Below are positions 745-45,005 of a stretch of 64,000 nt of DNA, in pieces. A program made the position numbers and the translations under genes. The notes below the pieces were generated by a model. It ran no database searches, was not told the origin of the DNA, and saw only the letters and a list, made by a program, of their open reading frames with translations. The number at the start of each line of letters is the position of its first letter. The first letter of the stretch is position 1. Source of the stretch: Bacillota bacterium (GTDB lineage Bacteria; Bacillota; Clostridia; Christensenellales; UMGS416); NCBI GenBank assembly GCA_023435705.1, contig JAEYRH010000003.1:202737-266736 (forward strand). The letters run 5' to 3'.

Positions 745-2121
745 TCAGCGGTCTTGCCTTTTCACGCCCTGTAGTATCCTGGCTCGGATCACATCCAAAC
801 GCTGCCGGTTTATGGCCTTCAGCGCGGCGGAGCGGCGGTGCGCCAGCCTGTCCAGGCTCTTGGTGGTGAACTTGATGCGCACTACCTGCTTGTTGAAGAT
901 TTCCTGCGCCAGCGCCGCCGGGATGGAATACCGTTTCCTGAGACCCTTTGCTGAAGATTTCTTATCGTGATACTCTGCGATGATGCGCTGGTATTCCACC
1001 GCCACCCGGTCTACGATTTTTTCCCAGGACACATAAACTGTTTCGCGGGCGTTGTCTCCAGCGGCCCGGATGGCGTGAGGATTGGCCAAAAGGTCCTTGA
1101 TCATGTTGCCATAAGCCGCCGGATCCAGCGCAGAGGTGAAACCGTTCACACCGTCGGTGATGCCTTCAGCGGCATTGGTTCCTGTGATCAACGCCGAGGG
1201 GCAGCCACAGGCAGCGGCCTCACGCACCACCAACGGGGCGTTATCATACACAGAGGGCAGCACAAACAGGTCTGCCGCCGCATAGATGCCCCGTAAAGGC
1301 TCCCGCTCGCGGATTGCTCCGGCGAACTTCACACGGTCAGCGATGCCCAACTCATGAGCCAGCTTCTGATAAGGCACAACTCCTTCGCCATCGCCGATAA
1401 TCAACAGGTTGAACTCGGCACCAGCTTTGATCTGCCCCAGAGCCTGCAGCAGGAAAGGCATGTTTTTCTGCTCCACCACCCGGCCCACGAAAAGCAAGAG
1501 CGGTTTGTCAGTCAGGCCAAACTGCCGGAGCACCGCCCTGCGGTTTTCTGCCGTGCGGGTCATGGGTTCAAAATCGCAGCCATTGGGCATTACGGTGATC
1601 GGGCCGCGATATCCATATTCCCGCAGCGTTTGTGCGGTGCTGTTGTTCACAGCCCAGGCTTCGTCGGCCATGGAAAAGAACTTGGCGGTGTAGCGTGCTG
1701 CGATCTTCCCGGCGTTTTCCATCTTGAGCCGCTGGGCAAAGTCGTCAGCAAACTTGGAGTGGAACGTGGCCACCAGAGGCACGTCCTTTTTCACAGCTGT
1801 TTTCATCGCCAGCGTGCCGGAGGCGAAGGGGCAATGGGCATGCACCAGGTCGATGGGCAGCTCGCTTAGCTTTTGGGAAGTGCGGAACGCGATCTGGGGG
1901 AGGCCCAGGCTGTATTCCTTGACCACAAACAGCGGCATGGACGCAAACCGGATCACCGGGAATTCCTCATCATATTCATGGCCCGCGGCCAATGCGTGCT
2001 GGGGGGCGGCCACACAACAACCGCCATGCTTGCGGTTGAGCCATACGGCATAGTTGCGCGTTGTCTGGGCCACACCGTCGGTTTGCGGCGGATATGACTC
2101 ATTGAACATTGCATAATACAT
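745..2121 (-). CDS. GT4-family (group 1) glycosyltransferase, probably a diacylglycerol glycolipid synthase type, with a basic C-terminal tail
   Basis: 458-aa ORF. N-terminus reads NESYPPQTDGVAQTTRNY, with the GT-B features HAHCPFASG, LLLFVGRVVEQKN and LPSVYDNAPLVVREAAACG. RBS AGGAAAGGA lies upstream. Confidence 0.85.
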   Translation of the reverse strand: MYYAMFNESYPPQTDGVAQTTRNYAVWLNRKHGGCCVAAPQHALAAGHEYDEEFPVIRFASMPLFVVKEYSLGLPQIAFRTSQKLSELPIDLVHAHCPFASGTLAMKTAVKKDVPLVATFHSKFADDFAQRLKMENAGKIAARYTAKFFSMADEAWAVNNSTAQTLREYGYRGPITVMPNGCDFEPMTRTAENRRAVLRQFGLTDKPLLLFVGRVVEQKNMPFLLQALGQIKAGAEFNLLIIGDGEGVVPYQKLAHELGIADRVKFAGAIREREPLRGIYAAADLFVLPSVYDNAPLVVREAAACGCPSALITGTNAAEGITDGVNGFTSALDPAAYGNMIKDLLANPHAIRAAGDNARETVYVSWEKIVDRVAVEYQRIIAEYHDKKSSAKGLRKRYSIPAALAQEIFNKQVVRIKFTTKSLDRLAHRRSAALKAINRQRLDVIRARILQGVKRQDR

Positions 2122-2342
2122 TGCGTTTCCTTTCCTGTCGGTCCAAGCTTGGGCACACGGATTAAGGTATGACGCTTGTGACGTTATTATCCAAACTAAT
2201 CATATAACGGAAAAGGGGATTTGAGTATGCTTTTATGACGTTATGAATATCAGCATCATTATTATAATGCGCTTGTGGGAAAATGCAAGAAGGCCACAAG
2301 ACGGAGGACTGCGCGAAAGATGCCGATTTTGCGGCAAGCATG

Positions 2343-2374
2343 AAAAAGCCGCACCGGAGTACCCAGTGCGGCTT
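2343..2374 (-). terminator. Rho-independent terminator after the oxidoreductase fusion gene
   Basis: Stem AAGCCGCAC / GTGCGGCTT with an 11-nt loop. The A-run on the plus strand gives a U-run on the minus-strand transcript. Confidence 0.7.
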
Positions 2375-2385
2375 AGTGCTGCTGG

Positions 2386-9414: not shown

Positions 9415-10259
9415 TCGAGATCCCCGAGGCTGCCGTGCTGGCCCGCCAATTGAATGCTGCCGTGCGGGGCAGGGCAATCCTGTCTGCAGAAGCCAACCAC
9501 TCCCCCCACCGGTTCGCATGGTATACCGGCGACCCTGCCGGATATGGCGTGATGCTTTCGGGCCGGCAGATTCTGGGCGCTGTGGGCAGCGGCGGGGCGC
9601 TTGAGCTGAAGCTCTCTGGCGGGCTCACGTTGTTTTTCAATGACGGCCCTACGCTTCGCCTGCACAAGGCCGGCGCCAAGCTGCCGGACAAACACCAACT
9701 GCTGCTGATGCTGGACGACGGCAGTGCGCTCACCGCCTCCATCCAAATGTATGGCGGCGTGACGGCGTTCCCGGACGACCATGTGGAGAATGTCTATTTG
9801 CAAGGTGGCAGGGAGAAGCCCAACCCACTGACAGAAGCGTTTGACCGTGCTTGGTTCGATCGCCTGCTGGCTGGTGAAGGTGTTGGCAACCTGAGCGCTA
9901 AGGCGTTTCTGGCAACCGAGCAGCGGGTCCCAGGCCTGGGCAATGGCGTGCTGCAGGACATACTCTACAACGCACAAATCCATCCCCGCCGCAAGATGGA
10001 AACGCTGAACCCTGATGATCTGGACCGGCTTTATCACAGTGTCAAAAGCACTCTGGCCGAGATGGACTCGGGTGGTGGCCGTGACACAGAGACGGGCCTT
10101 TATGGCTTGCCTGGTGGCTATCAGACGAAGCTCAGCCGTAACACTGTGGGCACTGCTTGCCCCCGATGCGGTTCCACGATCAAAAAGGAGCCTTATCTGG
10201 GCGGCGCCATCTATTGGTGCCCTGGCTGCCAGGCGGAGCCTGCGAAGAAAGGGAAGTGA
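9411..10259 (+). CDS. Fpg/Nei-family DNA glycosylase homolog with Ile in place of the catalytic Pro2
   Basis: N-terminus MIEIPEAAVL, compared with the canonical MPELPEVE. H2TH-like segment AFLATEQRVPGLGNGVLQDILYNAQIHPRRK. C-terminal zinc finger CPRCGSTIKKEPYLGGAIYWCPGCQ. Confidence 0.75.
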   Translation: MIEIPEAAVLARQLNAAVRGRAILSAEANHSPHRFAWYTGDPAGYGVMLSGRQILGAVGSGGALELKLSGGLTLFFNDGPTLRLHKAGAKLPDKHQLLLMLDDGSALTASIQMYGGVTAFPDDHVENVYLQGGREKPNPLTEAFDRAWFDRLLAGEGVGNLSAKAFLATEQRVPGLGNGVLQDILYNAQIHPRRKMETLNPDDLDRLYHSVKSTLAEMDSGGGRDTETGLYGLPGGYQTKLSRNTVGTACPRCGSTIKKEPYLGGAIYWCPGCQAEPAKKGK

Positions 10260-10548: not shown

Positions 10549-11244
10549 TTGGTCACACTGGAAGGCATTAAGCAGAACGAAGTGATCATGGCCTTGATCC
10601 GCGAGGCAAACAATGTGTTGGCCGCCATCGGCTACACCGAGCACGGCCAACGGCATGTGGGCTTTGTGAGCAATACGGCCTCGGCCATTCTGAAAAAACT
10701 GGATTACCCTGAGCGCACCGTGGAGTTGGCCGCCATCGCCGGTTGGGTGCACGACGTGGGCAACGTGATCAACCGCAAGCATCATGGCATCAATGGCGCC
10801 ACGCTATTGTTCCCGCTGCTGCGCGAAATGGGCATGGAGATGGCGGAGATCGCGAAGATCCTTTCTGCAGTCGGCAACCATGAGGAGGAAAACGGCATGC
10901 CGGTTTCCGACGTTTCCGCTGCGCTGATCATCGCGGACAAGTCTGACGCCCACCGCACCAGGGTGCGCAAGGGCAAGTATGACCCGTATGATATTCATGA
11001 CAGGGTGAACTACTCCATCAAAAAGAATTGGGTGGATGTGGACCCGGTCAAGCGCGTGATCACCTATGCCATGACGATGGACAATTCCTCCTCAGTGATG
11101 GAATTTATGCAGATCTTTCTGCGGCGCATGACAATGTGCGAAAAGGCAGCGGAGTTTCTGGAATGCCGGTTCGACCTGGTTGTCAACGGCGTGGTGATCA
11201 ACAACCAGAGAGCCAATGGCAAGGATGGCCCGGTTGTTAACTAA
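10549..11244 (+). CDS. HD-domain phosphohydrolase
   Basis: H...HD metal motif (GQRHVGFV ... WVHDVGN). I prefer the TTG at 10549, 7 nt after GGGAGG. The ORF track starts at 10531 and an ATG lies at 10534, so the start is uncertain. Confidence 0.7.
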   Translation: MVTLEGIKQNEVIMALIREANNVLAAIGYTEHGQRHVGFVSNTASAILKKLDYPERTVELAAIAGWVHDVGNVINRKHHGINGATLLFPLLREMGMEMAEIAKILSAVGNHEEENGMPVSDVSAALIIADKSDAHRTRVRKGKYDPYDIHDRVNYSIKKNWVDVDPVKRVITYAMTMDNSSSVMEFMQIFLRRMTMCEKAAEFLECRFDLVVNGVVINNQRANGKDGPVVN

Positions 11245-11279
11245 CAGGCAGATGAGATCGCAAGCGGGAGCAGATGCAG

Positions 11280-33250: not shown

Positions 33251-33320
33251 GCATTTGGTATATTGTTTTCAATTCTTCGAGTCCTTTCACCTGTTTTCCC
33301 TTCGGGGAGAGGGAGCCGTT

Positions 33321-35828
33321 TTGCTGTTCCGATACCTGAAACGAAACCTGGGCGCCGAGCCGCAAGAGGCGGAGGCGCTTGCCCGCGAGCTGGGCGTGAT
33401 GAAGCCCACGGCGGAGATCCTGATCGGCCGGGGTGTGACCACGACTCAAGCTGGCCGCGCCTTCTTCGACCCCGGCATGGAGCGCCTGCGCGACCCGTTG
33501 GGCCTGATGGGCATGGGTGACGCAGTGAAGCGGATCAAAAGGGCCATCGCGGCCCATGAGAAGATCATCGTTTACGGCGATTATGACGTGGACGGCGTGT
33601 GTGCAACTTCCATTTTGGTTGAATATCTGACAGGCCTGGGAGCAGATTGCGACTATTACATCCCCAACCGCCATACAGAGGGTTATGGCCTGAACCGGGC
33701 GGCAGTGGAGTCATTCGCCGGGGCAGGGCTATTGGTGACGGTGGATTGCGGCGTGACCAACGGTGCGGAGGTAGCCCGCGCCCGCGAGCTGGGCATGGAT
33801 GTGATCGTGACCGACCACCACGAATGCCCCGATGTGCTGCCGGACTGCACAGCTGTCGTGAACCCCAAGCGGCCAGGTCAGGCATATGGCTTCTCCGGGC
33901 TTTGCGGTGCGGGCACGGCGCTGAAGCTGGTGCAGGCGCTGGGCAGGCGGGAGGCGGTGGAGCAGGTGCTGGACCTTGCGGCGCTGGCCACCGTGGCCGA
34001 CATTGTGCCGCTCACCGATGAAAACCGCGCCATCGTGCGCATGGGAATTGACCGCATCCAAGACGGAGAAAGGCCTGGCATCCAGGCGCTGAAGGAAGTC
34101 TCCGGGCTTGCCGGCAAGCCGGTGAAGGCCGGTAACATCGCGTTCATGCTGGCCCCGCGCATCAATGCCGGCGGGCGGATGGATTTCTCCCGCAAGTCGG
34201 TGGAACTGATGCTGACTCAAGACGCAGCAAGGGCCAGAGAGATTGCGGCGGAGCTCAACGACGACAATGCCGACCGTGTGCGTGTGGAAGAGGGCATTTT
34301 GGAGCAAGCCGTTGCGATGATTGAGCGTGGCTACTCTTTTTCGAAGCGCAGGGCCATTGTGCTCTATCAGCCCCATTGGAACACCGGCGTTACCGGAATT
34401 GTGGCCTCCAGGATTGTGGAGCGTTACCACCGGCCCACGTTCCTCTTTGGCGACGGTGAGGGGGCCTGTTACGGCTCCGGCCGCAGCGTGCCGGGCGTGC
34501 ACCTGTTTCAGGCGATGAAGGCCTGCTCTCAGTGGTTCCTGCGCTACGGTGGCCACGAGCAGGCTGCGGGCTGCGCTTTGCTGCCGGAGCATGTGGAGTT
34601 GTTTGCTGCCGAACTGGACAGATTCCTTACAGAGACTTATTCAGAGGACGTGTTCCTGCCGCTCCGGCAATATGACGCCCAACTTGCGGTTACTGAGCTA
34701 ACCATTGGCTTGGCGGAGGATATGGACAAACTGGAGCCCTGCGGCTTCGGCAACCCCCGCCCGGTCTTTTTGCTGAGGGATGTTGAGCTTGCCGGGCTGG
34801 CCCGCACCAAGGATGAAAAGCACCTGCGGATGCGCTTCGGAGGCGGATCCGGTGTGGAGGGCATTGCCTTCCGGCAGGGCGGCATGTTTGAAGCGCTCCA
34901 AGGTGCCTCAGCCTGCGACGCGCTGGTGGTGCCCGATGTGAACGACTGGATGGGCCGGCAGCGGGTGCAGGCTGTGGTGGAGCACATCCGCCCCGCTCAA
35001 GGGGAGGCCGGCGCAAGGGCTTTGATCGGTCAGGCCAGAGGAGCAGCGCAGGCGGCGCTGTTGAGGTTGCCAGAAGGGAATGTGCCTGCGGCGCCGCTTG
35101 ATTGGCAAACTGGTGTGTCCGCATTTTTGGATGCAGTGCGATGCTCTTGCTGGGGCGCCATGGCCCTTTGCCTGACTGAGACAAGCGCCACAGGCTTGCT
35201 GGAGGCGCTGCGGCATAGCGGGCTGTTGGAGCGGGTGTATGCCGGTGTGGGCGCTGCCCATCAGGCTGCCCGCCGTGAAAACGCGCTGGTGCTCGCGCCT
35301 GACCTAAAGGCTGTCCCTCTGGAGGGGTATGACCGTGTTTTCCTGTTTGACGGCCCCATTACCGGCGGATTGGCAAGTCATATCACCGGAAGATTGAACA
35401 ATGCCGGAAACTGCATTATAATTAGCGGTAACTCTGGTGGCGGCCTGCTGCCCGGTGATTTCTGCCGGGAAGAATTGCTCCGGGTTTTCCGGCTGATGAA
35501 GGTGGCTTTGCTCTCAAAGGTAGGCCCGGCAGGCCCCGCCGATTGGCGTTGGCTGGAGCGGGATGGCATTCCGCCGTGGCGTGCAGAGGTTTCGGCCCGG
35601 ATATTTACCGAGCTGGGGCTTTTGCTGGAACTGGACAAACCCATTTGGCTGCGGCCGGCGGAACCGGCTGCAAAGGCAGACCTCAACGACAGCTTGATTT
35701 ACAGGCGGTTGACCGAAACGATCAGGAGGTGCGGCGATGAATCTGAAGGACAAAGTGCGCTTGATACAGGACTTCCCGATGCCCGGCATCCGTTACCGGG
35801 ATATCACGACGCTGCTGAAGGACGGTGA
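33321..35828 (+). CDS. recJ: Single-stranded-DNA-specific exonuclease RecJ with a long C-terminal extension
   Basis: DHH motifs: IIVYGDYDVDGV, VTVDCG, VIVTDHH, and DHHA1 GGHEQAAG. Start uncertain: I chose TTG 33321 after GGGAGAGGGA, while the ORF track starts at 33255. Confidence 0.8.
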   Translation: MLFRYLKRNLGAEPQEAEALARELGVMKPTAEILIGRGVTTTQAGRAFFDPGMERLRDPLGLMGMGDAVKRIKRAIAAHEKIIVYGDYDVDGVCATSILVEYLTGLGADCDYYIPNRHTEGYGLNRAAVESFAGAGLLVTVDCGVTNGAEVARARELGMDVIVTDHHECPDVLPDCTAVVNPKRPGQAYGFSGLCGAGTALKLVQALGRREAVEQVLDLAALATVADIVPLTDENRAIVRMGIDRIQDGERPGIQALKEVSGLAGKPVKAGNIAFMLAPRINAGGRMDFSRKSVELMLTQDAARAREIAAELNDDNADRVRVEEGILEQAVAMIERGYSFSKRRAIVLYQPHWNTGVTGIVASRIVERYHRPTFLFGDGEGACYGSGRSVPGVHLFQAMKACSQWFLRYGGHEQAAGCALLPEHVELFAAELDRFLTETYSEDVFLPLRQYDAQLAVTELTIGLAEDMDKLEPCGFGNPRPVFLLRDVELAGLARTKDEKHLRMRFGGGSGVEGIAFRQGGMFEALQGASACDALVVPDVNDWMGRQRVQAVVEHIRPAQGEAGARALIGQARGAAQAALLRLPEGNVPAAPLDWQTGVSAFLDAVRCSCWGAMALCLTETSATGLLEALRHSGLLERVYAGVGAAHQAARRENALVLAPDLKAVPLEGYDRVFLFDGPITGGLASHITGRLNNAGNCIIISGNSGGGLLPGDFCREELLRVFRLMKVALLSKVGPAGPADWRWLERDGIPPWRAEVSARIFTELGLLLELDKPIWLRPAEPAAKADLNDSLIYRRLTETIRRCGDESEGQSALDTGLPDARHPLPGYHDAAEGR

Positions 35829-36252
35829 GGCCTTCGCAACACTCCTGGACAGGATGCATGAGCACCTGAAGGACAAGCGGATTGACATCGTGGCCGGCCC
35901 CGAAGCCCGCGGATTTATGATCGGTGCGCCGCTGGCCTATCTTCTGAAGGCCGGCTTTGTGCCGGTGCGACGCCCTGGCAAGCTGCCGGCAGAGGTGTTC
36001 CGCTATGAATACCAGATTGAGCAGGGTCGCAGTGACACACTGGAAGTGCACAGAGACGCCGTGCAGCCCGGCCAGCGTGTGGTCGTGGTGGATGACTTGC
36101 TCGCCACCGGCAGCACCGCCCTTGCCACCTGCCAGCTGCTGGAGAAGATGGGCGCGGAGATTGTGTGTGTGTGCTTCGCGATGGAGATGACGATGTATTC
36201 CGGCAAAGAGATCCTGCAGGGGTATGATGTCTTCTCTGCGATTAAGTTCTAG
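35737..36252 (+). CDS. apt: Adenine phosphoribosyltransferase
   Basis: MNLKDKVRLIQDFPMPGIRYRDITTLL and VVVVDDLLATGST (PRPP motif). RBS AGGAGGTG. The start lies 92 nt inside the recJ reading frame. Confidence 0.9.
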   Translation: MNLKDKVRLIQDFPMPGIRYRDITTLLKDGEAFATLLDRMHEHLKDKRIDIVAGPEARGFMIGAPLAYLLKAGFVPVRRPGKLPAEVFRYEYQIEQGRSDTLEVHRDAVQPGQRVVVVDDLLATGSTALATCQLLEKMGAEIVCVCFAMEMTMYSGKEILQGYDVFSAIKF

Positions 36253-36269
36253 AGCAGACGAAATGAGGC

Positions 36270-36297
36270 AAGGCGGGGATGCTCCCCGCCTTGTTGC
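36270..36297 (+). terminator. Rho-independent terminator after apt
   Basis: AAGGCGGGGA-tgc-TCCCCGCCTT followed by GTTG. Confidence 0.65.
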
Positions 36298-36373
36298 GAA
36301 TCACCGGGAGTTTCTCACCCCTGGATCATGGGAATAATACAATAAAAGCATCCATCCCCCAAAGGAGATTTCA

Positions 36374-38524
36374 GTGAACGGGTTCATCGACAGAATTCGA
36401 AAGGAAGCAGCAGGCAAGCTGGACGTCAGCCTGATCGAACGGGCTTATGAATTTGCCGGGGCAGCCCATGAGGGGCAGGCCCGCCAGACTGGCGAGCCTT
36501 ATTTCATCCACCCCTGCCAGGTCGCCACGATCCTTTTGGATATGGAAATGGACGCCACGACGATCGCGGCCGGCCTCCTGCATGACACTGTGGAAGACAC
36601 AATTGTTACGCTGGATCAGATCAAAGAAAAATTCGGGCCGGAAATTGCCCTGATTGTGGACGGCCTGACCAAGATCAGCAAGGTGGAGTTCAGCAGCAAT
36701 GAGGAGCGGCAGGCCGAGAGCATCCGCAAGATGCTGCTGGCAATGTCGCAGGATATCCGCGTGATCATGATCAAGCTGGCCGACCGCCTGCACAACATGC
36801 GCACTCTTGATGCCTGCCCCCGGGAGAAGCAAGTTGCTGTGGCCCGCGAGACCCGCGACATTTATGCGCCACTGGCCCACCGCCTTGGTATCTTTAAGAT
36901 CAAGATAGAGCTGGAAGACCTGGCGCTTCGCTATTTGGATCCTGAAGGTTATGCCGAGGTGGCTCGTGAGTTGGAGGCAACGGTGGCCAACCGGCGGGCG
37001 GAGATCGACCTGGTGATCGCGCAGATCCGCGAGCGGCTGGTAGATGCGGAAATCACTGCCACCATCGAGGGCCGCCTCAAGCATTACGCCAGCATCTATC
37101 GCAAGATGAAGGAGCAGCACAAAACGCTGGAGCAGATTTACGACCTTTCTGCTGTGCGTGTGATTGTGGACTCTGTGAAGGACTGCTATGGCGTGCTGGG
37201 CATTGTGCACACGCTGTGGCGGCCGTTGCCGGGCCGGTTTAAGGACTACATCGCCGTGCCCAAGGCCAACCTCTACCAGTCGCTGCACACCACGGTGATT
37301 GGCCGGGCCGGTGCGCCGTTTGAGGTGCAGATCCGCACCTGGGAGATGCACCGCACCGCTGAATACGGCATCGCGGCCCACTGGAAATATAAGGAAGACG
37401 GCACAGACAACACATTTGACAATAAGCTCGCATGGCTGCGCCAAATCCTGGAGTGGCAAAACGAAACGCGGGACGCTCATGAGTTCATGGACTCGTTGAA
37501 GCTCGACCTGTTTTCCACCGAGGTGTTTGTGTTCACGCCCAAGGGCGATGTGGTGGATCTGCCCAAGGGTGCCACGCCGGTGGATTTCGCCTATATGATC
37601 CACAGTGCGGTGGGCAACAAGTGCGTGGGCGCCAAGGTCAACGGCAAGATGGCCATGCTCAACGCTGAGCTCAAAACCGGCGACATCGTGGAAATCATCA
37701 CCTCCAACACCAGCCGGGGGCCAAGCCGCGACTGGCTTAATATCGTGAAAACACCCCAGGCCCGCAACAAGATCCGCGCCTGGTTCAAAAAGGAATACAA
37801 GGACGAAAACATCGAAAAGGGCCAGGACATGCTGGAGGAGGCTGCCAAGCGCTCCGGCGTTCTTCTGGGCGACCTTTTGAAGCCCGAATGGCTGCAGAAG
37901 CTATATAAAAAGTTTACGCTAAGCTCCGTGGAGGATATGTACGCCGCAGTGGGTTATGGGGGCCTCACCACCGGGCAGGTGCTGCAGCGATTGCTGGCCG
38001 AGCACCGCCGCGAGCAGAAGGCCAAGCAAGCAGAAACGGCGCCTGCCACTGAAAGCAAGGCGCAGAGAAAGCCACCGTCCAGCAGGGGCATTATTGTGAA
38101 GGGGCACAAAAACATGCTGGTGCGCTTCGCCCAGTGCTGCAACCCGGTGCCTCACGATGAGATCGTGGGCTTCATCACCCGGGGTCGGGGTGTGTCTGTG
38201 CACCGCCGCGACTGCCCCAGCATCATTGACCTGATGAACGACCCCAGCCGGTTCATTGACGTGGCCTGGGAGGATGATGCCAGCTCGGCCTACCGCGCCC
38301 GCCTGCACCTGAGTGCCTATGACCGCCCGGCGCTCATTGTAGACATCTACAAGGCCATCGACACCGTGGATGCTCACATGATCGAGGTAAACGCCAAAGT
38401 GACCGCCAAAGGGGTGGCCAACATGGCGATGCTCATTCAGATTAAAGATAAGGTGCAGCTGGAGGCATTGATTCGGGCCTTCCGCAAGATACCCGAGATG
38501 ATTGATGTGTATCGGGGGACGTGA
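36374..38524 (+). CDS. relA: Bifunctional (p)ppGpp synthetase/hydrolase (RelA/SpoT homolog)
   Basis: 716 aa. GTG start after AAAGGAGA. HD hydrolase motif (HDTVEDT), synthetase motif (YQSLHTTV), then TGS and ACT-like C-terminal regions. Confidence 0.92.
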   Translation: MNGFIDRIRKEAAGKLDVSLIERAYEFAGAAHEGQARQTGEPYFIHPCQVATILLDMEMDATTIAAGLLHDTVEDTIVTLDQIKEKFGPEIALIVDGLTKISKVEFSSNEERQAESIRKMLLAMSQDIRVIMIKLADRLHNMRTLDACPREKQVAVARETRDIYAPLAHRLGIFKIKIELEDLALRYLDPEGYAEVARELEATVANRRAEIDLVIAQIRERLVDAEITATIEGRLKHYASIYRKMKEQHKTLEQIYDLSAVRVIVDSVKDCYGVLGIVHTLWRPLPGRFKDYIAVPKANLYQSLHTTVIGRAGAPFEVQIRTWEMHRTAEYGIAAHWKYKEDGTDNTFDNKLAWLRQILEWQNETRDAHEFMDSLKLDLFSTEVFVFTPKGDVVDLPKGATPVDFAYMIHSAVGNKCVGAKVNGKMAMLNAELKTGDIVEIITSNTSRGPSRDWLNIVKTPQARNKIRAWFKKEYKDENIEKGQDMLEEAAKRSGVLLGDLLKPEWLQKLYKKFTLSSVEDMYAAVGYGGLTTGQVLQRLLAEHRREQKAKQAETAPATESKAQRKPPSSRGIIVKGHKNMLVRFAQCCNPVPHDEIVGFITRGRGVSVHRRDCPSIIDLMNDPSRFIDVAWEDDASSAYRARLHLSAYDRPALIVDIYKAIDTVDAHMIEVNAKVTAKGVANMAMLIQIKDKVQLEALIRAFRKIPEMIDVYRGT

Positions 38525-38557
38525 GCTTTCGGTCAAAACTGTGATTTATGATACAGA

Positions 38558-38587
38558 GAATGCCCCTCCCGCTCGGGAGGGGCATTC
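38558..38587. terminator. Bidirectional 14-bp perfect stem-loop between the convergent relA and propeller-lipoprotein genes
   Basis: GAATGCCCCTCCCG-ct-CGGGAGGGGCATTC. Confidence 0.75.
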
Positions 38588-38600
38588 TTCAACTGTTTAA

Positions 38601-39731
38601 CTATTTCAACTTTGTTGTCGCAAGGCCTTTCCAACCTTCCACCTCGCAGGCTCCTTCTTCATTACTTCCGGTTGAAACTGCAGTGCCATCTGCTTTCAGG
38701 CCAACCACATGGCCTGACCCGGCTGTGATGGCGATGATGTTTGTCCAATCCTGTATGTTGCCTTCCCCAAACATGTTCTGCCCGGCGGCCACCACTGTGC
38801 CGTCTGCTTTCAGCCCATAGGAGCAGTACCCTCCGACGGCGATGGCGATGATGTCGCTCCAGGATTCCACATTGCACTCACCATCGTTGTTGTATCCGGT
38901 GGCAACCACGGTGCCGTCAGCCCTGAGCCCCAGCACGGTTCTTTCATTCGCCGCGATGGCTACAATTTTTGTCCACTTGCTCACGTTGCATTGCCCATAT
39001 TGATTGTTTCCTGTGGCAACCACTTTGCCATCCTTTTTCAAGCCAACTCCGAATCGTTCGCCGGCTGCGATGGCTATAATGCCCTTCCAGTTTTTTACCT
39101 TGTTGGGGTCAGAGCTCTTGTAATCGATGCCGTTTGACAAGACTGTTCCGGCAGCTTTCAACCCTATCACGGTATCATTTCCACCGGTTGATACCGCGAT
39201 GATTTTCTTCCACTTTTTCAGCGTGCGGCTCAAATAGCTTCTCTGCGATCCTGAGACCACAACGGTGCCATTGGATTGCAAGCCCACGACGTGAACATAT
39301 CCGGCTGATATTGCGACAATCTTGTTCCATTTGGCTGTGTTGATCCCATACTCCTTGTTGTTACCCGCTTGGACAACTTTCCCATTCTTGGTGATGGCAA
39401 ACGAGAAGTTCCCTGCGGCAATATTGCCCGCAAGCAGCCGGCGCGAGGCCTGCAATTTTGCCAAATCTGGTTTTGCCGTGGGTGTGGGTGTTGGCGCAAG
39501 CGTTGGAGATGCGGTGGGCTCCTGTGTCATTTCCAGCGTTTTGGTTGGAGCCACAGTGGGCAATAAGCTGGGAGCAGCCGTGTGTGAAGCGGTGGGAGAG
39601 GGGCCCATAGTTGCCGTTGGGGTGGGCTTCGCCACAGCGGGTTGGCACGCCGAAAGGAAGCAGGCGGCCAGCAGCAGAAATGCCGTCAATGCTGATGTTA
39701 GCATGGTGGATCTCTTTGACTTTGCACTCAT
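38601..39731 (-). CDS. Lipoprotein with about seven RCC1-like (RCC1_2-type) beta-propeller repeats
   Basis: Signal peptide plus lipobox (FLLLAAC), then a Pro/Thr-rich linker. Seven ~38-aa repeats follow, of the form W-x-x-I-[IV]-A-I-[AS]-x-G...GL[KR]xDGTVVxxG. It is full-length homologous to the C-terminal half of 39788..41869. Confidence 0.8.
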   Translation of the reverse strand: MSAKSKRSTMLTSALTAFLLLAACFLSACQPAVAKPTPTATMGPSPTASHTAAPSLLPTVAPTKTLEMTQEPTASPTLAPTPTPTAKPDLAKLQASRRLLAGNIAAGNFSFAITKNGKVVQAGNNKEYGINTAKWNKIVAISAGYVHVVGLQSNGTVVVSGSQRSYLSRTLKKWKKIIAVSTGGNDTVIGLKAAGTVLSNGIDYKSSDPNKVKNWKGIIAIAAGERFGVGLKKDGKVVATGNNQYGQCNVSKWTKIVAIAANERTVLGLRADGTVVATGYNNDGECNVESWSDIIAIAVGGYCSYGLKADGTVVAAGQNMFGEGNIQDWTNIIAITAGSGHVVGLKADGTAVSTGSNEEGACEVEGWKGLATTKLK

Positions 39732-39787
39732 GATTTCACCTCATATTCTTCTAGACTGTCTGGGCATTGGTGAGAAGTCAATTTGAT

Positions 39788-41869
39788 TTATTTCAGCCTT
39801 GTCGTTGCGAGTTTATTCCAACCGTCCACTTCACAGGCCCCTTCTTCGTTTGACCCGACTGCTACCGCGGCGCCATCGTGCCGCAGGCCAACCACATGCC
39901 CTGATCCGGCTGAGATGGCGATGATATCGGTCCATTTGTCTGTGTTGCGCTGGCCTAAATGGCCATCGCCCGCGGATATGACCGTGCCATCTGCCTTCAA
40001 CCCATAAGAACTGAAGTCACCCACGGCAACTGCTACGATGTCACGCCAGGCTTCCACGCTGCACTCTCCGTCGATGTTGTAACCTGTGGCCACCACCGTT
40101 CCGTCAGCCTTTAATCCTAGCACCGTCCTCGAGCTTGCCGCGATGGCAACGATATCTTTCCACTCGCCTACGTTGCATTGTCCATATTCATTGTTGCCTG
40201 TGGCCACCACCGTTCCGTCTGCCTTTAGCCCTATTCCAAACCCTTCACCGGCTGCGATGGCGACAATGTCTTTCCAGTTCTTTACTTTGTTTGGATCCGC
40301 GCTATCATAAAATATCCCGGTGGATACTACGGTGCCATCTGCTTTCAGGCCCATGATCACATCGTTGCCGCCAGCAGCTATTTCAACGATATTTTTCCAC
40401 TCTTTGGTATTCCTCTCAAAATCTGGCCTGCCGTGCCCGCCGGTTACGACTACGGTGCCATCGGAGCGCAATCCGGCAACGTGTACGAATCCTGTGGATA
40501 TAGCTACCATCTTGCTCCACTTGCTTGTATCGATTTGGTATTCCTTGATATTCCCAGCCTGGTGGACCTTCCCGTCTTTTGTGACGGCAAACGTGCAAAT
40601 CCCTGCAGCGATATTTCCTGCGATTAACCGACAGTTGGCTTGTAATTGGGATATGTCGGGATTCACCGTTGGTGCAGGGGTCGGGGTGGGTTCCGATGTT
40701 GGGGTGGGTGCGGCAGTTTGCGCAGGCGATGCTGTTGGTGTTGGCTTTGCCGATGCGACCAACTCCAGATCGGCAGAAGCCGGCTGCGCAGTGGTGGGTT
40801 GGCAGGCTGTGGTGAAGCAAGCCACAAGCAGGAGAATTGCCGTGATCACTGCAGCCAGCCGCGTAGAGGTGCTGGATTTTTCGCTCATAAAAACACCCCT
40901 TATTCTTTTTTCTGCGCTGGTCCTGTTGTGTTCCATTCCCATACCCATTACAGGCTTTACGCTTCCTGGCTGGCTGAAGAGCATCAGCAGTGTTGAGGCA
41001 TACTGCCTTTTTTCGTCATTGCCCATCTTTTTGACCACAGTGCTGTCACAAGACACTTCCATGTCCTGCTGCATTTGATGGGCAGCGAGCCAAACAACCG
41101 GGTTGAACCAATACACACATCTCAATACCATCAGCAACAAGGAAATGATGTGATCACCCCTTTTGTAGTGGGATAGCTCATGGCGGAAGATATGCTCCAA
41201 TGTCTCGGGATTGCGATGGCTCTCGCTTGGCAGCAACAGTATCGGTGCAACGCTGATGGAAAGAGCCGGTGTGGAGATGCCATTCAAGATTACAGGCCTT
41301 GGCCCATGGCGAATCCCCAACTCCAGCTTGAGCCTCTCAAACAGGCGCCGCTCTGCGGAGGGCAATGGCTGCTTGTTGCGCAGGATCGATGCGGAGAGCC
41401 TGAGGTGAACAAACGCGAACCAAGCGCATACCGAGATGATACCGACAAACCATATGGCTGGCAGCACATGCTCCAGATCCCGGGACCACCAACCTGGATC
41501 CGTATTGCGATTAACTTGTGGTATTGCCGGAGCATTCACCGGCATCGACTCATCTTTCGTAACGTTTTTCATTGTATTGGTGGCGGTTTCTTGTGAATTG
41601 GCAACTGGCAGAGCGTTGTTATGATTGGTGTGCTCGCTGCCAGCCTGCAACAATTGAGTGACTTGTTGTGTTTGTTGTGGCAGAGTGATCAGGTGGAACC
41701 CACCTTCGATGGTAACGGGCATTAACAACCGCAACAGCAGAAGGAACCACACTCCATATTGCATCGCGGCTGACATCTTGTTGCGAAACAGCGTGCGAAA
41801 GAGCAGGATTGCCAGATAAAGAACGGCAGAATAGACAGTAATCTCGGCAAGCGCCTCAAGAACCCTCAT
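39788..41869 (-). CDS. M56-family (BlaR1/MecR1-like) membrane zinc metalloprotease fused to an extracellular RCC1-like seven-repeat propeller
   Basis: Start at MRVLEALAEIT (GGGAG RBS), overlapping the blaI-like stop by 14 nt. Multi-TM N-terminus with FRHELSHYKRGDH (HExxH) and YWFNPVVW. Then a TM/lipobox-like segment (LLLVAC), a PT linker and seven propeller repeats. Confidence 0.85.
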   Translation of the reverse strand: MRVLEALAEITVYSAVLYLAILLFRTLFRNKMSAAMQYGVWFLLLLRLLMPVTIEGGFHLITLPQQTQQVTQLLQAGSEHTNHNNALPVANSQETATNTMKNVTKDESMPVNAPAIPQVNRNTDPGWWSRDLEHVLPAIWFVGIISVCAWFAFVHLRLSASILRNKQPLPSAERRLFERLKLELGIRHGPRPVILNGISTPALSISVAPILLLPSESHRNPETLEHIFRHELSHYKRGDHIISLLLMVLRCVYWFNPVVWLAAHQMQQDMEVSCDSTVVKKMGNDEKRQYASTLLMLFSQPGSVKPVMGMGMEHNRTSAEKRIRGVFMSEKSSTSTRLAAVITAILLLVACFTTACQPTTAQPASADLELVASAKPTPTASPAQTAAPTPTSEPTPTPAPTVNPDISQLQANCRLIAGNIAAGICTFAVTKDGKVHQAGNIKEYQIDTSKWSKMVAISTGFVHVAGLRSDGTVVVTGGHGRPDFERNTKEWKNIVEIAAGGNDVIMGLKADGTVVSTGIFYDSADPNKVKNWKDIVAIAAGEGFGIGLKADGTVVATGNNEYGQCNVGEWKDIVAIAASSRTVLGLKADGTVVATGYNIDGECSVEAWRDIVAVAVGDFSSYGLKADGTVISAGDGHLGQRNTDKWTDIIAISAGSGHVVGLRHDGAAVAVGSNEEGACEVDGWNKLATTRLK

Positions 41870-42248
41870 TTTGCTCTCCCTTCTTGGCCAGCTGCTCCAG
41901 CAGCTTCGCCAACTCCTCCTGGTCTTTGCTGGATAGCCCACTTTCTTTGATCATGCACACCAACAGCTCTTTTGTGGAAGTTTCGGTAACCTTTTGCAGC
42001 AAGCCTCTGCTCTCGTTGAGGATGCACTGATCCTTTTCCACCAGAGGGAAATAGTAGTTGTCTCTGCCTCTGGTTTCAAAGCCAACAAACCCTTTTTCGT
42101 TGAGCTTCCGCAAATAGGAGGCATAAGTGCGGTAGCTCCAGTTCAGAGACCCTTTCATCGTTTCGATCACGCCGGAAAGTGTCTGTGGAGACTTTTCCCA
42201 CAGGGCAGACATCACGGCCCATTCGGATTTGGTGAGCGTATCAGGCAT
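41856..42248 (-). CDS. BlaI/MecI/CopY-family winged-helix transcriptional repressor
   Basis: MPDTLTKSEWAVMSALWEKSPQTLSGVIETMKGSLNWSYRTYASYLRKLNEKGFVGFETRGRDNYYFPLV. ATG at 42248 lies 6 nt after GAGGTG. The ORF track starts at the in-frame GTG 42257. Confidence 0.85.
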   Translation of the reverse strand: MPDTLTKSEWAVMSALWEKSPQTLSGVIETMKGSLNWSYRTYASYLRKLNEKGFVGFETRGRDNYYFPLVEKDQCILNESRGLLQKVTETSTKELLVCMIKESGLSSKDQEELAKLLEQLAKKGEQNEGS

Positions 42249-42302
42249 GCATTTCACCTCTTTGCCAGCATGCGAAAGCTGTTTGTGATTGTTGGAATAA
42301 TC

Positions 42303-42342
42303 CTATGATTGTAAGTATAATCATAGCAGATGGCGTTGTCAA
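42303..42342 (-). promoter_or_regulatory. Promoter of the blaI-like operon, overlapped by a perfect inverted repeat (candidate operator)
   Basis: The minus strand reads TTGACA (42342..42337) - 17 nt - TATACT (42319..42314). The inverted repeat CTATGATT-N8-AATCATAG (42303..42326) covers the -10 box and the predicted start site. Confidence 0.65.
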
Positions 42343-42466
42343 TAGCGCTTTTTTTATTTCTACCCAAATGGTCGGTGTTCTTTTTGCTGGCGGAAAAGCC
42401 TCTTTCCTTCCTGGCAGATGTTGGTGTATGATGTGTTCACAACAAGCTTGAGCAAACGGAGCTCCC

Positions 42467-42916
42467 ATGCGCGCAGTGATCCAGCGTGTCAAATCCGCCA
42501 GAGTGGACGTAGCAGCCCAGACCATCGGCCAGATCGGCCACGGCCTGCTGGTCTTTCTTGGCGTGGAGATGGGAGACGGTGAGAAGGACCTGGAATACAT
42601 CTGCACCAAGCTCATTGGCCTGCGCATCTTCGAAGACGATGAGGGCAAGATGAATCTGGCTTTGGGCGATGTGGACGGCAGCGCATTGGTGGTCTCACAG
42701 TTCACGCTGTTGGGTGACGCACGCCATGGCCGCCGGCCCAGCTTTTCCAATGCCGCAGCGCCCGAGGAGGGTGAGCGGTGGTATCTGGCCGCGGTGGATT
42801 TCCTCCGCCGTGCTGGCATTGAGGTGCAGACCGGGCAATTCCGGGCCGATATGGAGGTTCACCTCGTCAACGATGGGCCTGTCACCATTCTACTGGATAG
42901 CAGGAGGGCCTTTTGA
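42467..42916 (+). CDS. dtd: D-aminoacyl-tRNA deacylase
   Basis: MRAVIQRVKSARVDV...VSQFTLLGD...RPSF...MEVHLVNDGPVTILLDS. 149 aa. Confidence 0.92.
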   Translation: MRAVIQRVKSARVDVAAQTIGQIGHGLLVFLGVEMGDGEKDLEYICTKLIGLRIFEDDEGKMNLALGDVDGSALVVSQFTLLGDARHGRRPSFSNAAAPEEGERWYLAAVDFLRRAGIEVQTGQFRADMEVHLVNDGPVTILLDSRRAF

Positions 42917-43545
42917 TGGCCGTAAGTAAAATTATCCCTGTGCCCACCGGTCGCAACGATGGCCGCAGCTATCTATTGGTCTGCAAGGAGACCGGCACCG
43001 CTGCTGCCGTCGATGTGGACATCAACGTGGAGCAATTGCTGCAAGCTGCAGCGGCGGAAGGCGCCGCAATTCGCCACATTCTGCTGACCCATTGCCACTT
43101 TGACCATGTGTCAGGTTCTGACGAGTTGAGGGAGCGCACTGGTGCGCAGGTATCGATCCACAGCCTGGACCGGCCTGGTCTCAACGATCCGATGCGCAAC
43201 ATGTCCGGCCCTTTCCGGCAGAAGCCCATCACCGGGCGGCATGTGGATTTGGAGCTGGACGAGTGCAGCACAATTGCGATTGGCAACCTTGTTGTGAAGG
43301 TGCTGCACACACCTGGGCACACGCCGGGCTCCTGCTGCTTTTGGGTGGGGGACGACCTTTTCACCGGTGATACATTGTTTCGAGGCGGTTACGGCAACAC
43401 CGGGTTCCCCGGTGGTGACATGCAGGCGCTGATGCTTTCGATGGCGCGGCTGTTGTCTATGGATGAGCACATCGCCATTTACCCCGGACACGGTCAGCCC
43501 AGCACCATTGGCCGGGAGCGGGTGATGAACCCGATCAGCATATGA
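42913..43545 (+). CDS. MBL-fold metallo-hydrolase (glyoxalase II-like)
   Basis: LLTHCHFDHVSG (HxHxDH motif) and LHTPGHTPGS. Start and stop overlap the neighbouring genes by 4 nt each. Confidence 0.85.
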   Translation: MMAVSKIIPVPTGRNDGRSYLLVCKETGTAAAVDVDINVEQLLQAAAAEGAAIRHILLTHCHFDHVSGSDELRERTGAQVSIHSLDRPGLNDPMRNMSGPFRQKPITGRHVDLELDECSTIAIGNLVVKVLHTPGHTPGSCCFWVGDDLFTGDTLFRGGYGNTGFPGGDMQALMLSMARLLSMDEHIAIYPGHGQPSTIGRERVMNPISI

Positions 43546-45005
43546 TCCAGTTTACGACGAACCAACCGGGCTTTTACAACGACATGGCCGATGTGATCCG
43601 GCTCTTCTTCGGCATGGAGAAGGTCTCAGCCGAGGAATCCGGCGTGGAGCTTGCCATTGACCACCGCTTTGAGGAGCGGCAGGGGCAATGGGTCGAGCGA
43701 TGCGAGCTCATCCGGCTCGGCCAAGCCTCCATCGCCCGGGAAATGTCCTTCGATGCGGTGCAGAGCGCTGACAGCTTGCTGGTGGAGCGGCTGAAGAAGC
43801 GCAATGCCAAGTTGTGCCTTTATGCGCTGTTGAAGCAGGATCGAGGTTTCTCCCCGCCATGGGGATCACTCACCGGCATCCGGCCTACCAAGCTGGCCCG
43901 GCAGCTGCTGGATGAGATGGGGCAGGGCAGCCTGCCCGCAGTGGTGGAAGCGCTGCAGACTATATTTGATGTATCGGAACCCAAAGCCCGCTTGGTGGGT
44001 AACATCCTCAGCGCGCAGCAAGGCATCCATACCTGGGGTGACAGCGCCCATTACGATGTCTATATCGGCATCCCGTTCTGCCGCACCCGCTGCCTCTACT
44101 GCTCGTTCTTCAGCGCCGACATGCGCAAACCCAAGCTGGCCGATGCTTATGTGGAGGCGCTGCTTCGTGAAATCGCCGCATTTGGCGCAGTGATGGGCGA
44201 GCAGGGCAGGCGCTGCCGAGCCATCTATGTGGGGGGCGGCACACCTGTGGCCATCCCCACCGAGCAGCTGCGGCGGGTGCTGGACAGTGCGCAGCATGCC
44301 TTCCCCGGTGCAATGGAATTCACTGTGGAGGCCGGCAGGCCGGACAGCGTGACTGCTGAAACCATGGCCATGCTCAAAGCTATGGGTGTAGGAAGGGTGA
44401 GCATCAACCCGCAGACGATGAACACCCGCACGCTCCGGGCTATTGGCCGCGACCACACGCCGGAGGAAGTGCTGGAAGCCTTCGCCATGGCTCGTGCCGC
44501 CGGAATCAGACAGATCAACATGGATCTCATTGCTGGCTTGCCCGGTGAAAATGCCGATGGCATGGCCGCCACACTGGATGCGCTGGCGCCCCTTGATATG
44601 GACAATCTGACAGTGCACACCCTGGCGATCAAGCACTCCTCCCGCCTGAATGAGCGTTTGGGCGAATACCCGCTGCCCGCCGATGTGGAGGCCGCCCGCA
44701 TGGTGGAGCTGGCCCACACATTTGCAGCAGGGCGAGGGATGGTGCCCTACTACATGTATCGCCAGAAGTATATGGCCGGCAACCTGGAAAATGTGGGATA
44801 TGCCCTGCCCGGTACGGCGTGTGTTTATAACATTGACATGATGGAGGAGACCCACGATATCGTGGCACTGGGGGCCGGGGCTGTGTCAAAACGCATGTTT
44901 TATGAGCAGACCCGCCATGAGCGCTTCCCCAATCCAAAGAACATTGAGTACTATATCGGTAAGATTGATGAGATTATACGAGATAAAGCAGAGTTTTTCC
45001 TGTAG
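43542..45005 (+). CDS. hemZ: Radical SAM coproporphyrinogen dehydrogenase-like protein (HemZ type)
   Basis: YIGIPFCRTRCLYCSF (CxxxCxxC radical SAM cluster) and the HemN-like C-terminal region. 487 aa. Confidence 0.8.
   Translation: MIQFTTNQPGFYNDMADVIRLFFGMEKVSAEESGVELAIDHRFEERQGQWVERCELIRLGQASIAREMSFDAVQSADSLLVERLKKRNAKLCLYALLKQDRGFSPPWGSLTGIRPTKLARQLLDEMGQGSLPAVVEALQTIFDVSEPKARLVGNILSAQQGIHTWGDSAHYDVYIGIPFCRTRCLYCSFFSADMRKPKLADAYVEALLREIAAFGAVMGEQGRRCRAIYVGGGTPVAIPTEQLRRVLDSAQHAFPGAMEFTVEAGRPDSVTAETMAMLKAMGVGRVSINPQTMNTRTLRAIGRDHTPEEVLEAFAMARAAGIRQINMDLIAGLPGENADGMAATLDALAPLDMDNLTVHTLAIKHSSRLNERLGEYPLPADVEAARMVELAHTFAAGRGMVPYYMYRQKYMAGNLENVGYALPGTACVYNIDMMEETHDIVALGAGAVSKRMFYEQTRHERFPNPKNIEYYIGKIDEIIRDKAEFFL

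Follow-up and report, generated by a model that had tools for sequence, protein, structure and literature searches.

What does a BlaR1-type membrane sensor respond to once its penicillin-binding domain has been exchanged for an unrelated fold, and what does it then switch on? The question is raised by three minus-strand genes in a 64,000-nucleotide stretch of DNA (the window) from a Christensenellales genome (Bacillota bacterium, GenBank assembly GCA_023435705.1, contig JAEYRH010000003.1, positions 202,737 to 266,736), which encode a BlaI/MecI-type winged-helix repressor of 130 residues (41856..42248), a membrane protein that joins an M56 zinc protease to a beta-propeller (39788..41869) and a lipoprotein (38601..39731). 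All three open reading frames (ORFs) were found at the coordinates given by a first-pass annotation made from the sequence alone. We propose that they form an autoregulated proteolytic derepression switch of the BlaI/BlaR type in which the sensor domain has been replaced and a free copy of that domain, binding the same ligand, is the product. For this entire chain we consider the balance of probability to tip slightly in favour, and our confidence in the switch itself is higher. That it is a proteolytic derepression switch which does not sense beta-lactams is likely, and on this point the first-pass interpretation, which emphasized a sensor without a transpeptidase domain, is supported; its estimate of the novelty of the system type was overstated.

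The repressor matches the Pfam family Penicillinase_R over the complete profile (positions 1-115 of 115, E 2.6e-26, 92.7 bits) and aligns along its full length with MecI (1OKR, E 4e-11). The membrane protein contains Peptidase_M56 at residues 7-323 (profile positions 3-293 of 296, E 1.8e-50, 172.2 bits against a cut-off of 31), and its HELSH (residues 230-234; 41182..41168) and EVSCD (residues 271-275) align with HEYAH and EVEAD of Staphylococcus aureus BlaR1 (8EXP), HEXXH and EXXXD being the active-site signature of BlaR1 (bioRxiv 10.64898/2026.08.03.742534). Hydropathy segments at about residues 3-28, 40-58, 134-160 and 332-359, together with the helices of an AlphaFold2 (AF2) model, place the protease between transmembrane segments 3 and 4 (TM3 and TM4) and the sensor domain after TM4; by analogy with BlaR1 this domain would lie outside the cell. 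The model of the full-length sensor has a predicted local distance difference test score (pLDDT) of 83.8 and is confident over residues 1-55 and 128-355. The gene can accordingly be divided into the BlaR1-type membrane protease module (residues 1-330; 40880..41869; from Pfam, the 8EXP alignment and AF2), TM4 (residues 332-359; 40793..40876; from hydropathy and a clade motif), a Pro/Thr-rich disordered and presumably extracellular stalk (residues 360-405; 40655..40792; from composition and a pLDDT below 50) and the propeller ectodomain (residues 406-693 plus the stop codon; 39788..40654; from Pfam, AF2 and Foldseek). The NCBIfam models for BlaR1, MecR1, BlaI, MecI and CopY gave partial matches below cut-off in every case: blaR1_generic scores the sensor at 133 bits against a cut-off of 400 and covers only profile positions 6-326 of 585, and the repressor is not of the CopY subtype, scoring 68 against a cut-off of 122 with TIGR02698 and having no Cys cluster in its C-terminal tail. 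A Pfam search of the three proteins found no match to the transpeptidase domain (PF00905).

Both the sensor and the lipoprotein match RCC1_2 well above the cut-off of 22 (E 5.6e-29 and 99.6 bits, E 2.7e-34 and 116.5 bits, respectively), which completes the Pfam content that the first-pass annotation had expected: Penicillinase_R, Peptidase_M56 and RCC1_2 present, transpeptidase absent. In the sensor the repeats form seven blades of 38-41 residues, beginning at residues 412, 451, 491, 532, 570, 608 and 646, and a closing C-terminal strand; the earlier count of seven repeats of ~38 residues stands, except that the leading Trp is missing from the first blade. AF2 models both proteins as closed propellers of seven three-stranded blades (propeller pLDDT 94-98; lipoprotein 85.9 overall) with one and the same layout, namely an N-terminal or TM4 helix, a disordered Pro/Thr stalk, a short helix and the seven blades. 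Among solved structures the nearest relative is BLIP-II, the beta-lactamase inhibitory protein II. Foldseek searches of the PDB returned it first for the sensor (1JTD/3QI0, E 4.7e-19, 29-30% identity, template-modelling score 0.75-0.77) and for the lipoprotein (E 1.4e-19, 26-27% identity, BLIP-II-normalised score 0.78-0.80), with a root-mean-square deviation of ~3.1 Å over 250-262 columns, and UVR8, RCC1, HERC and the ectodomains of the plant ACR4/CR4 receptor kinases followed far behind in both searches. By sequence, BLIP-II is likewise the top match of a five-sequence profile (E 6.8e-17 versus 8e-7 for HERC1); a single-sequence search of the PDB with the lipoprotein gave weak RCC1/HERC matches only and did not find BLIP-II. 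The description as an RCC1_2-type propeller was therefore correct, and BLIP-II-like, the best assignment by fold and profile, is more precise than the generic RCC1-like. The sensor is not of the penicillin-binding type, since it has no PF00905 match and its ectodomain is a confidently predicted propeller whose best solved relative is a protein-binding inhibitor.

The resemblance raises the question of whether both propellers retain the function of BLIP-II itself, binding serine beta-lactamases or proteins with the fold of penicillin-binding proteins (PBPs), such that an enzyme of this kind would be sensed and a membrane-anchored inhibitor induced against it. BLIP-II ranks first by fold (E 1e-19, score 0.75-0.80) as well as by profile, and the transducer belongs to the very family that controls beta-lactam resistance. 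However, BLIP-II is the sole short-blade bacterial propeller with a solved structure in a very large family (4566 matches scored), so that a best match may mean the same subfamily only; the 26-30% identity falls mostly within the repeat framework; and the invariant Trp of the BLIP-II xWG motif is replaced by Thr, Ser, Ala or Val in the window propellers. Hence the match does not imply beta-lactamase binding. As there is also no serine beta-lactamase gene nearby, the neighbouring gene of the metallo-beta-lactamase (MBL) fold encoding a small hydrolase beside dtd, we regard a conserved BLIP-II function as very unlikely. The window propellers share with BLIP-II of Streptomyces exfoliatus their seven three-stranded blades of ~40 residues and their export, whereas BLIP-II is soluble, actinobacterial and without a transducer, and the window propellers are membrane-linked. 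Close propeller homologues occur in fusions with Ser/Thr kinases, FecR (FecR-type anti-sigma factors), zinc ribbons, TIR/TPR, LysM, PG_binding_1, PASTA and dockerin domains; since they stand outside the membrane on so many different proteins, the propeller is, by these domain fusions, a widely reused extracytoplasmic sensing or binding module.

The third gene encodes a second copy of this module. The 376-residue lipoprotein (residues 1-376) is 61% identical (E 3e-153) to residues 328-693 of the M56 protein in a colinear alignment that starts at the Met preceding TM4 and runs through to the final residue, which bears out the full-length paralogy to the stalk and propeller reported earlier and agrees with Pfam and AF2. 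Its N-terminus comprises a basic MSAKSKRS, a hydrophobic segment at residues 8-35 (AF2 helix at residues 6-27) and a signal peptide (residues 1-28) with a lipobox, L26-S27-A28-C29, that by inspection fits [LVI][ASTVI][GAS]C; the Pro/Thr stalk extends to about residue 88 and the propeller occupies residues 89-376. The lipoprotein begins exactly at the homologue of Met328, which is invariant across the M56 clade, and keeps LLLAACFLSACQP, which indicates that it is a partial duplicate of the 3' half of the M56 gene in which the former TM4 now serves as signal peptide, the FTTAC of the M56 protein having become the canonical lipobox FLSAC. It could be argued that this duplicated fragment lies downstream by chance and does something unrelated: genes are often duplicated in part, and saturated synonymous divergence (dS) marks the window pair as old. 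Yet the ORF is intact, has its own ribosome-binding site (RBS) and an optimised lipobox (FTTAC to FLSAC), the ratio of nonsynonymous to synonymous divergence (dN/dS) is ~0.1-0.2, and the same arrangement, with two copies, recurs in the only other lineage, so that we give hardly any credence to a chance arrangement. We considered Met328 as a clade-wide internal start of the M56 gene and rejected it, as the Arg-Gly codons of the putative Shine-Dalgarno (SD) sequence vary (CGC GGC being commonest). The window has an SD-like AAGGGG 7 nt upstream of the Met328 codon (40886..40910), where the lipoprotein homology starts; this is probably due to chance, the codons not being conserved in relatives. 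The exact lipoprotein sequence is missing from a collection of 15 billion proteins in which both operon partners are present, and the call of its gene in L002 has no recorded Pfam match despite clear RCC1_2 similarity; owing to this annotation gap the paralogy would stay hidden in database-driven surveys.

Only two proteins with this M56 module and a propeller emerged from our searches, that of the window (P0001) and P0002, which is 48-52% identical to it and comes from an uncultured Christensenellaceae metagenome-assembled genome (MAG). No further fusion was found in a word-indexed search of 5.8 billion proteins, in the GTDB species genomes (apart from the contig of the second locus, L001), among the matches listed for a JGI metagenome scan, by tblastn over 158 fetched loci, or among the best 150 matches of an exhaustive search of 1.84 billion representatives. 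In the latter the other high scorers were multi-propeller giants and ten mid-sized candidates proved by Pfam to have no M56 domain; distant fusions scoring below those 150 lie outside the scope of this survey. The L001 locus has the order blaI, M56-propeller gene and two free propeller lipoprotein genes, with gaps of 54 and 52 nt, so the prediction that a free copy would be consistently adjacent holds in the other locus too, with n = 2. Sensor and free propellers of one genome are more closely related to each other than to those of the other genome: they are 68% identical in the window genome and 72-76% in L001, where propeller identities overall span 72-80%, versus 60-65% between the genomes, and 15 alignment columns are genome-specific versus 2 that are sensor/free-specific. 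All the copies compared are under purifying selection, with a dN/dS of ~0.09 between sensor and free copy in the window (dS saturated) and of 0.17-0.21 within L001 (dS 0.67-0.89). Recent gene conversion between sensor and free genes was entertained and rejected, there being no long identical tracts and the longest exact matches being 20-29 nt; the longest between the two L001 free copies is 56 nt, and third-position identity of the window sensor/free pair is 44%. Either each lineage underwent its own duplication or homogenisation has kept the copies alike, and both alternatives would imply selection for a matched sensor/free pair. As the closest relative of the sensor, the free copy most likely binds the sensor's ligand.

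The co-variation of sensor and free copies within each genome can also be accommodated by direct contact, with the lipoprotein binding the sensor propeller as a feedback inhibitor or required co-receptor and having no ligand of its own. The two share the position of the membrane anchor and the length of the stalk, and BlaR1 acts as a dimer (PMC9834060). However, self-association of these propellers would have to be assumed, a stoichiometric partner would have no need of the two free copies in L001, and BLIP-II is a monomeric binder of a foreign protein. We therefore judge such a partnership distinctly improbable.

Upstream of the repressor gene lies a sigma-70-type promoter (42314..42342), TTGACA (42342..42337)-N17-TATACT (42319..42314), with 11 of 12 matches and the top score within 38300..42700. 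A dyad, CTATGATTATACTTACAATCATAG (42303..42326; core ATGATTATA-CT-TACAATCAT at 42305..42324), covers its -10 element, and both the consensus promoter and the overlapping palindrome of the first-pass annotation are thereby confirmed; a second dyad, ACAATC-ATAG-GATTAT (42312..42297), overlaps the first. A comparison of the upstream regions of 76 blaI-like genes from the fetched loci revealed near-identical dyads at the same promoter position in L036, L042, L007, L025, L013, L004, L018, L008, L012 and L028 (for instance TATGATTATACTTATAATCATA in L036 and ...TATAGTTATAATCATA in L025). The BlaI proteins of these ~10 loci are 59-70% identical, the TTGACA-N17 layout is the same, and their promoters share the consensus ATGATTATA-NN-TAYAATCAT over the -10; more distant BlaI subclades carry CTACAATTGTAG, classical TACAnnTGTA box. 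Since the closest BlaI homologues share both its sequence and its placement, the promoter dyad is, on comparative grounds, a real operator. With up to 3 mismatches allowed, no second copy was found anywhere in the 64-kb window (0.06 expected by chance), and consequently the predicted regulon within the window is the operon itself. L001 has a TTGACA-N17-TATAAA promoter (1919..1956) with an operator-like dyad, AGGATTATAAATGTAATCAC, over the -10, at 3 mismatches to the window operator. This site precedes a gene for a 1511-residue surface protein of BspA-type leucine-rich repeats (LRR) and Listeria-Bacteroides repeats, which is followed on the same strand by an fn3/Ig protein gene, blaI, the M56-propeller gene and the two free copies; the regulon of that genome may thus include a giant surface protein. 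The L001 spacers before the free genes (10086..10139 and 11208..11259) contain palindromes of the TACA..TGTA type (TACATGTA; TACACATGTA, classical BlaI/CopY box), and the corresponding spacer of the window has no TACA..TGTA box and only a small palindrome, AGACAGTCT.

The genes had been described as tightly packed, which is accurate for the first two, the start of the M56 gene overlapping by 14 nt the 3' end of the repressor gene directly upstream; between the M56 and lipoprotein genes, however, there is a gap of 56 nt (39732..39787) in which a sequence scan found the RBS GAGGTG and neither a promoter nor a terminator is predicted. A terminator-like hairpin recognised by its folding energy (38557..38588; 4-nt loop, -31.7 kcal/mol, z -6.9) lies between the convergent relA and lipoprotein genes. 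Its 14-bp perfect stem is as the first-pass annotation had it, but the U-tract after it is weak and a terminator scanner made no call. Given the overlap, the short gap with its RBS, the lack of a predicted internal promoter or terminator and a strong hairpin only after the third gene, it is plausible that repressor, M56 and lipoprotein genes are a single transcription unit.

The M56 clade from which the sensor derives its membrane part places this arrangement in a wider setting. The nearest M56 modules are 37-47% identical and come from MAGs of Christensenellaceae and other Clostridia (a scan of GTDB genomes pointed to Christensenellaceae and Bacillota MAGs), and their ectodomains are DUF6034, VanW, NlpC/P60 with PG_binding_1, PF09992 or nothing recognisable. 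Whatever the ectodomain, R[IV]RG[IV]FM...CFTTACQP[TV]PE hardly varies across 37 M56 genes, that of the window (40793..40897, residues 325-359) and 36 others (L003-L049). It corresponds to the juxtamembrane region and TM4 in the form RIRGVFM-x2-KS-...-LLxACFTTACQP, with an invariant RIRGVFM before TM4 and the clade-wide LVACFTTACQP at the end of TM4. In all 37 genes the end of TM4 resembles a lipobox, and it recurs as the ...ACQPTPE end of the signal peptide of free DUF6034 lipoproteins. In a sample of 145 M56 genes with ectodomains of at least 150 residues from the fetched loci, 32 are accompanied in their locus by a free paralogue of the ectodomain that has no M56 part, and 24 have a second M56-fused paralogue close by. 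By Pfam most of the free copies are DUF6034 lipoproteins, with the ...ACQPTPE ending; the L044 pair is 70.6% identical over 469 residues and still bears CFTTACQPTPE, and in L013 an M56-VanW gene has a free VanW neighbour with 56% identity, the VanW domain being confirmed by Pfam. These M56-DUF6034 and M56-VanW systems of Christensenellaceae and related Clostridia resemble the window system in the identical RIRGVFM...CFTTACQPTPE motif, in BlaI subclade and operator and in the free ectodomain paralogues often found next door; they differ in the fold of the ectodomain, and their free copies often lie upstream with their own promoters or other motifs.

Adjacency does not imply BlaI control in the DUF6034 loci, since many of the free copies lie upstream of blaI with other motifs and one lies beside a histidine-kinase gene. 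Direct repeats of TTACAACTTGA occur upstream of free DUF6034 genes in L083 (~2340..2466), L097 (~830..958) and L012 (~3880..4003), and in L083 the ORF preceding the free gene ends like a histidine kinase (…GVGKGTTVRVRFQ); free DUF6034 copies with such repeats may be under two-component rather than BlaI control. L008, L009, L012, L028 and L044, from Christensenellaceae-type genomes, contain tandem arrays of two to four blaI-M56 pairs with differing BlaI subclades, interleaved with free DUF6034 genes, each pair having its own dyad type (ATGATTA..TAATCAT, CTACAATTGTAG, TCTTAT..ATAAGA and ATTACTAT..TAGTAAT). At least four M56 loci were counted in a single MAG, CAZDZY.

How far does this depart from characterized systems? 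The M56 family comprises ~15,000 proteins in 254 architectures, of which ~6% have a transpeptidase domain, and 96% of M56 proteins are encoded near a BlaI; in Clostridioides difficile an exported protein encoded downstream is repressed 500-fold by CenI, and what CenIR senses was reported as unknown (PMC13492132, 2026). The same study, in which neither RCC1 nor propellers are mentioned, thus already established the idea of a BlaR-like switch that senses something else, and the earlier statement that no system of this type had been characterised is incorrect: most members of the family are BlaIR-like systems that have no domain for binding beta-lactams, and CenIR has been characterised (PMC13492132). 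What is new here is the BLIP-II-like sensor, a cargo that is the sensor's own paralogue, the evidence for the origin of that paralogue, and the pattern of M56-X next to free X. A literature search retrieved no relevant paper on Peptidase_M56 with RCC1, on DUF6034 or on RCC1_2. Like BlaR1/BlaI and MecR1/MecI, the window system combines a Penicillinase_R winged-helix repressor with a four-TM M56 gluzincin whose HEXXH and EXXXD lie between TM3 and TM4, an extracellular sensor after TM4 and a palindromic operator over the promoter, and it is predicted to be self-regulated. Unlike them, it has a BLIP-II-like propeller in place of a sensor related to PBPs or class D beta-lactamases, an operator of the form ATGATTATA-NN-TATAATCAT in place of TACAnnTGTA, and as output a co-directional lipoprotein paralogue in place of a divergent beta-lactamase or PBP2a gene. 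CenIR, the BlaIR of M. tuberculosis and M. abscessus, and PvmSR of P. aeruginosa are BlaIR-family switches that, as here, have no beta-lactam-binding domain. An exported protein is encoded just downstream in CenIR also, and CenI strongly represses it (PMC13492132). However, CenR ends in a short, disordered C-terminus and no sensor at all is present in the mycobacterial and Pseudomonas proteins, whereas the window ectodomain is a large folded propeller; similarly, the CenIR output CDR_0474 is unrelated to its sensor, in contrast to the sensor paralogue of the window. An RCC1-like or other propeller serves as the extracytoplasmic sensor of a single- or multi-pass transducer also in the bacterial Ser/Thr kinase-RCC1_2 fusions met in our searches, in M. 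tuberculosis PknD and in plant ACR4/CR4, whose output is a kinase rather than a protease-repressor pair. The propeller of PknD is of the NHL type.

The wall-related nature of the sister M56 ectodomains (VanW, NlpC/P60 with PG_binding_1, PF09992) and of the LysM, PG_binding_1 and PASTA domains fused to close propeller homologues could mean that the propeller monitors the state of the cell's own envelope. It would then bind a component such as peptidoglycan, a secondary wall polymer or a wall enzyme, and the switch would set how much of a surface lipoprotein with a structural or scaffolding role is made, in the way that CenIR seems to adjust envelope genes, with neither a foreign ligand nor neutralisation. 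The envelope-related regulon of CenIR (PMC13492132) and a proposed role of BLIP-II in cell-wall remodelling (PMC9146315) are in line with this. On the other hand, sensor and lipoprotein have no wall-binding domain of their own, the LysM and PG_binding domains of homologues may just anchor a propeller that binds something else, and the differing contexts of the two loci, with the recJ-apt-relA-dtd run interrupted in the window, have the look of an accessory cassette and not of core envelope homeostasis. We consider an envelope monitor possible, if rather unlikely.

The sequence of events that we favour is that of an autoregulated switch whose sensor has been exchanged. In the uninduced state the winged-helix repressor would occupy the dyad overlapping the -10 of the single promoter, and the membrane protein would hold its BLIP-II-like propeller outside the cell on the disordered stalk of ~45 residues. 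Binding of a ligand, probably a protein or cell-envelope polymer rather than a beta-lactam, would be signalled across TM4 and turn on the cytoplasmic M56 zinc protease, which would inactivate the repressor. The operon would then be transcribed, its sole cargo besides the switch being the lipid-anchored free stalk and propeller. This free copy would act as an effector at the cell surface, sequestering or neutralising the ligand and thereby exerting negative feedback on the sensor. By analogy, the logic would be that of BlaR1 and MecR1, whose sensor domains are related to the induced beta-lactamase or PBP just as the window sensor is related to its predicted output.

A more specific version of the favoured chain, which we put forward as a speculation and hold to be quite unlikely in this exact form, would have the propeller bind or inhibit a foreign secreted protein in the manner of BLIP-II (for example an enzyme, a toxin or the surface protein of a phage or competitor). 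The M56-tethered copy would be the receptor, and contact would induce lipid-anchored copies to cover the membrane and neutralise the target, so that the cell would sense with a copy of its weapon. If so, repeated re-copying of the 3' half of the sensor gene into the effector gene would keep the specificities of detection and neutralisation matched. Its traces would be visible in the TM4-derived signal peptide and the within-genome similarity in two lineages, with parallels in the DUF6034 and VanW systems.

Several observations weigh against the proposed switch and its shared ligand. The resemblance between the sensor and its free copy could reflect binding to each other just as readily as a ligand in common. 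The Asn-Phe cleavage site of MecI and BlaI (in MecI the scissile bond is Asn101-Phe102) is not conserved in the window repressor, which has Cys-Met aligned there (...ELLVCMIKE...). The fusion is present in two lineages only, so that the synteny evidence amounts to n = 2, and in L001 the operator-like site lies 5.7 kb upstream, the region directly before blaI having no dyad. Free paralogues of the M56-DUF6034 genes are often upstream of blaI and associated with other motifs, such as the direct repeats above, and the hairpin at the operon end has a weak U-tract.

The operon lies antisense between relA (36374..38524) and dtd (42467..42916), interrupting an otherwise co-directional recJ-apt-relA-dtd-MBL-radical SAM run (33255..45005), and its G+C content is slightly down (0.52-0.55 versus ~0.57-0.61 in the flanks); it looks like an insertion into a conserved housekeeping cluster. 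L001, in turn, adjoins a BspA-LRR/Flg_new surface-protein gene, and as the contexts of the two loci differ, the M56-propeller unit appears to behave as an accessory cassette. A gene for an MBL-fold (Lactamase_B) hydrolase occurs near the operon in both genomes (window 42913..43545, 0.7 kb off; L001 657..1490, 6 kb off), probably a coincidence of housekeeping context. In the window we found no further M56 or BlaI genes and no Rfam families, and the PADLOC defence models returned nothing meaningful.

The direct biological reach of the system is limited, since it is rare, having turned up in just two uncultured or poorly known Christensenellaceae-type lineages. Nonetheless, the locus offers a tractable entry point to what non-canonical BlaR sensors detect, because its sensing part is a well-folded, soluble-type binding domain that is also made as a free lipoprotein, and both sensor and free propellers could be purified as bait for the ligand. 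The repeated duplication of M56 ectodomains into neighbouring free lipoproteins suggests a general rule by which the sensor is a tethered copy of the effector; were it to hold generally, free paralogues would point to the ligands of many BlaR-like sensors that do not respond to beta-lactams.

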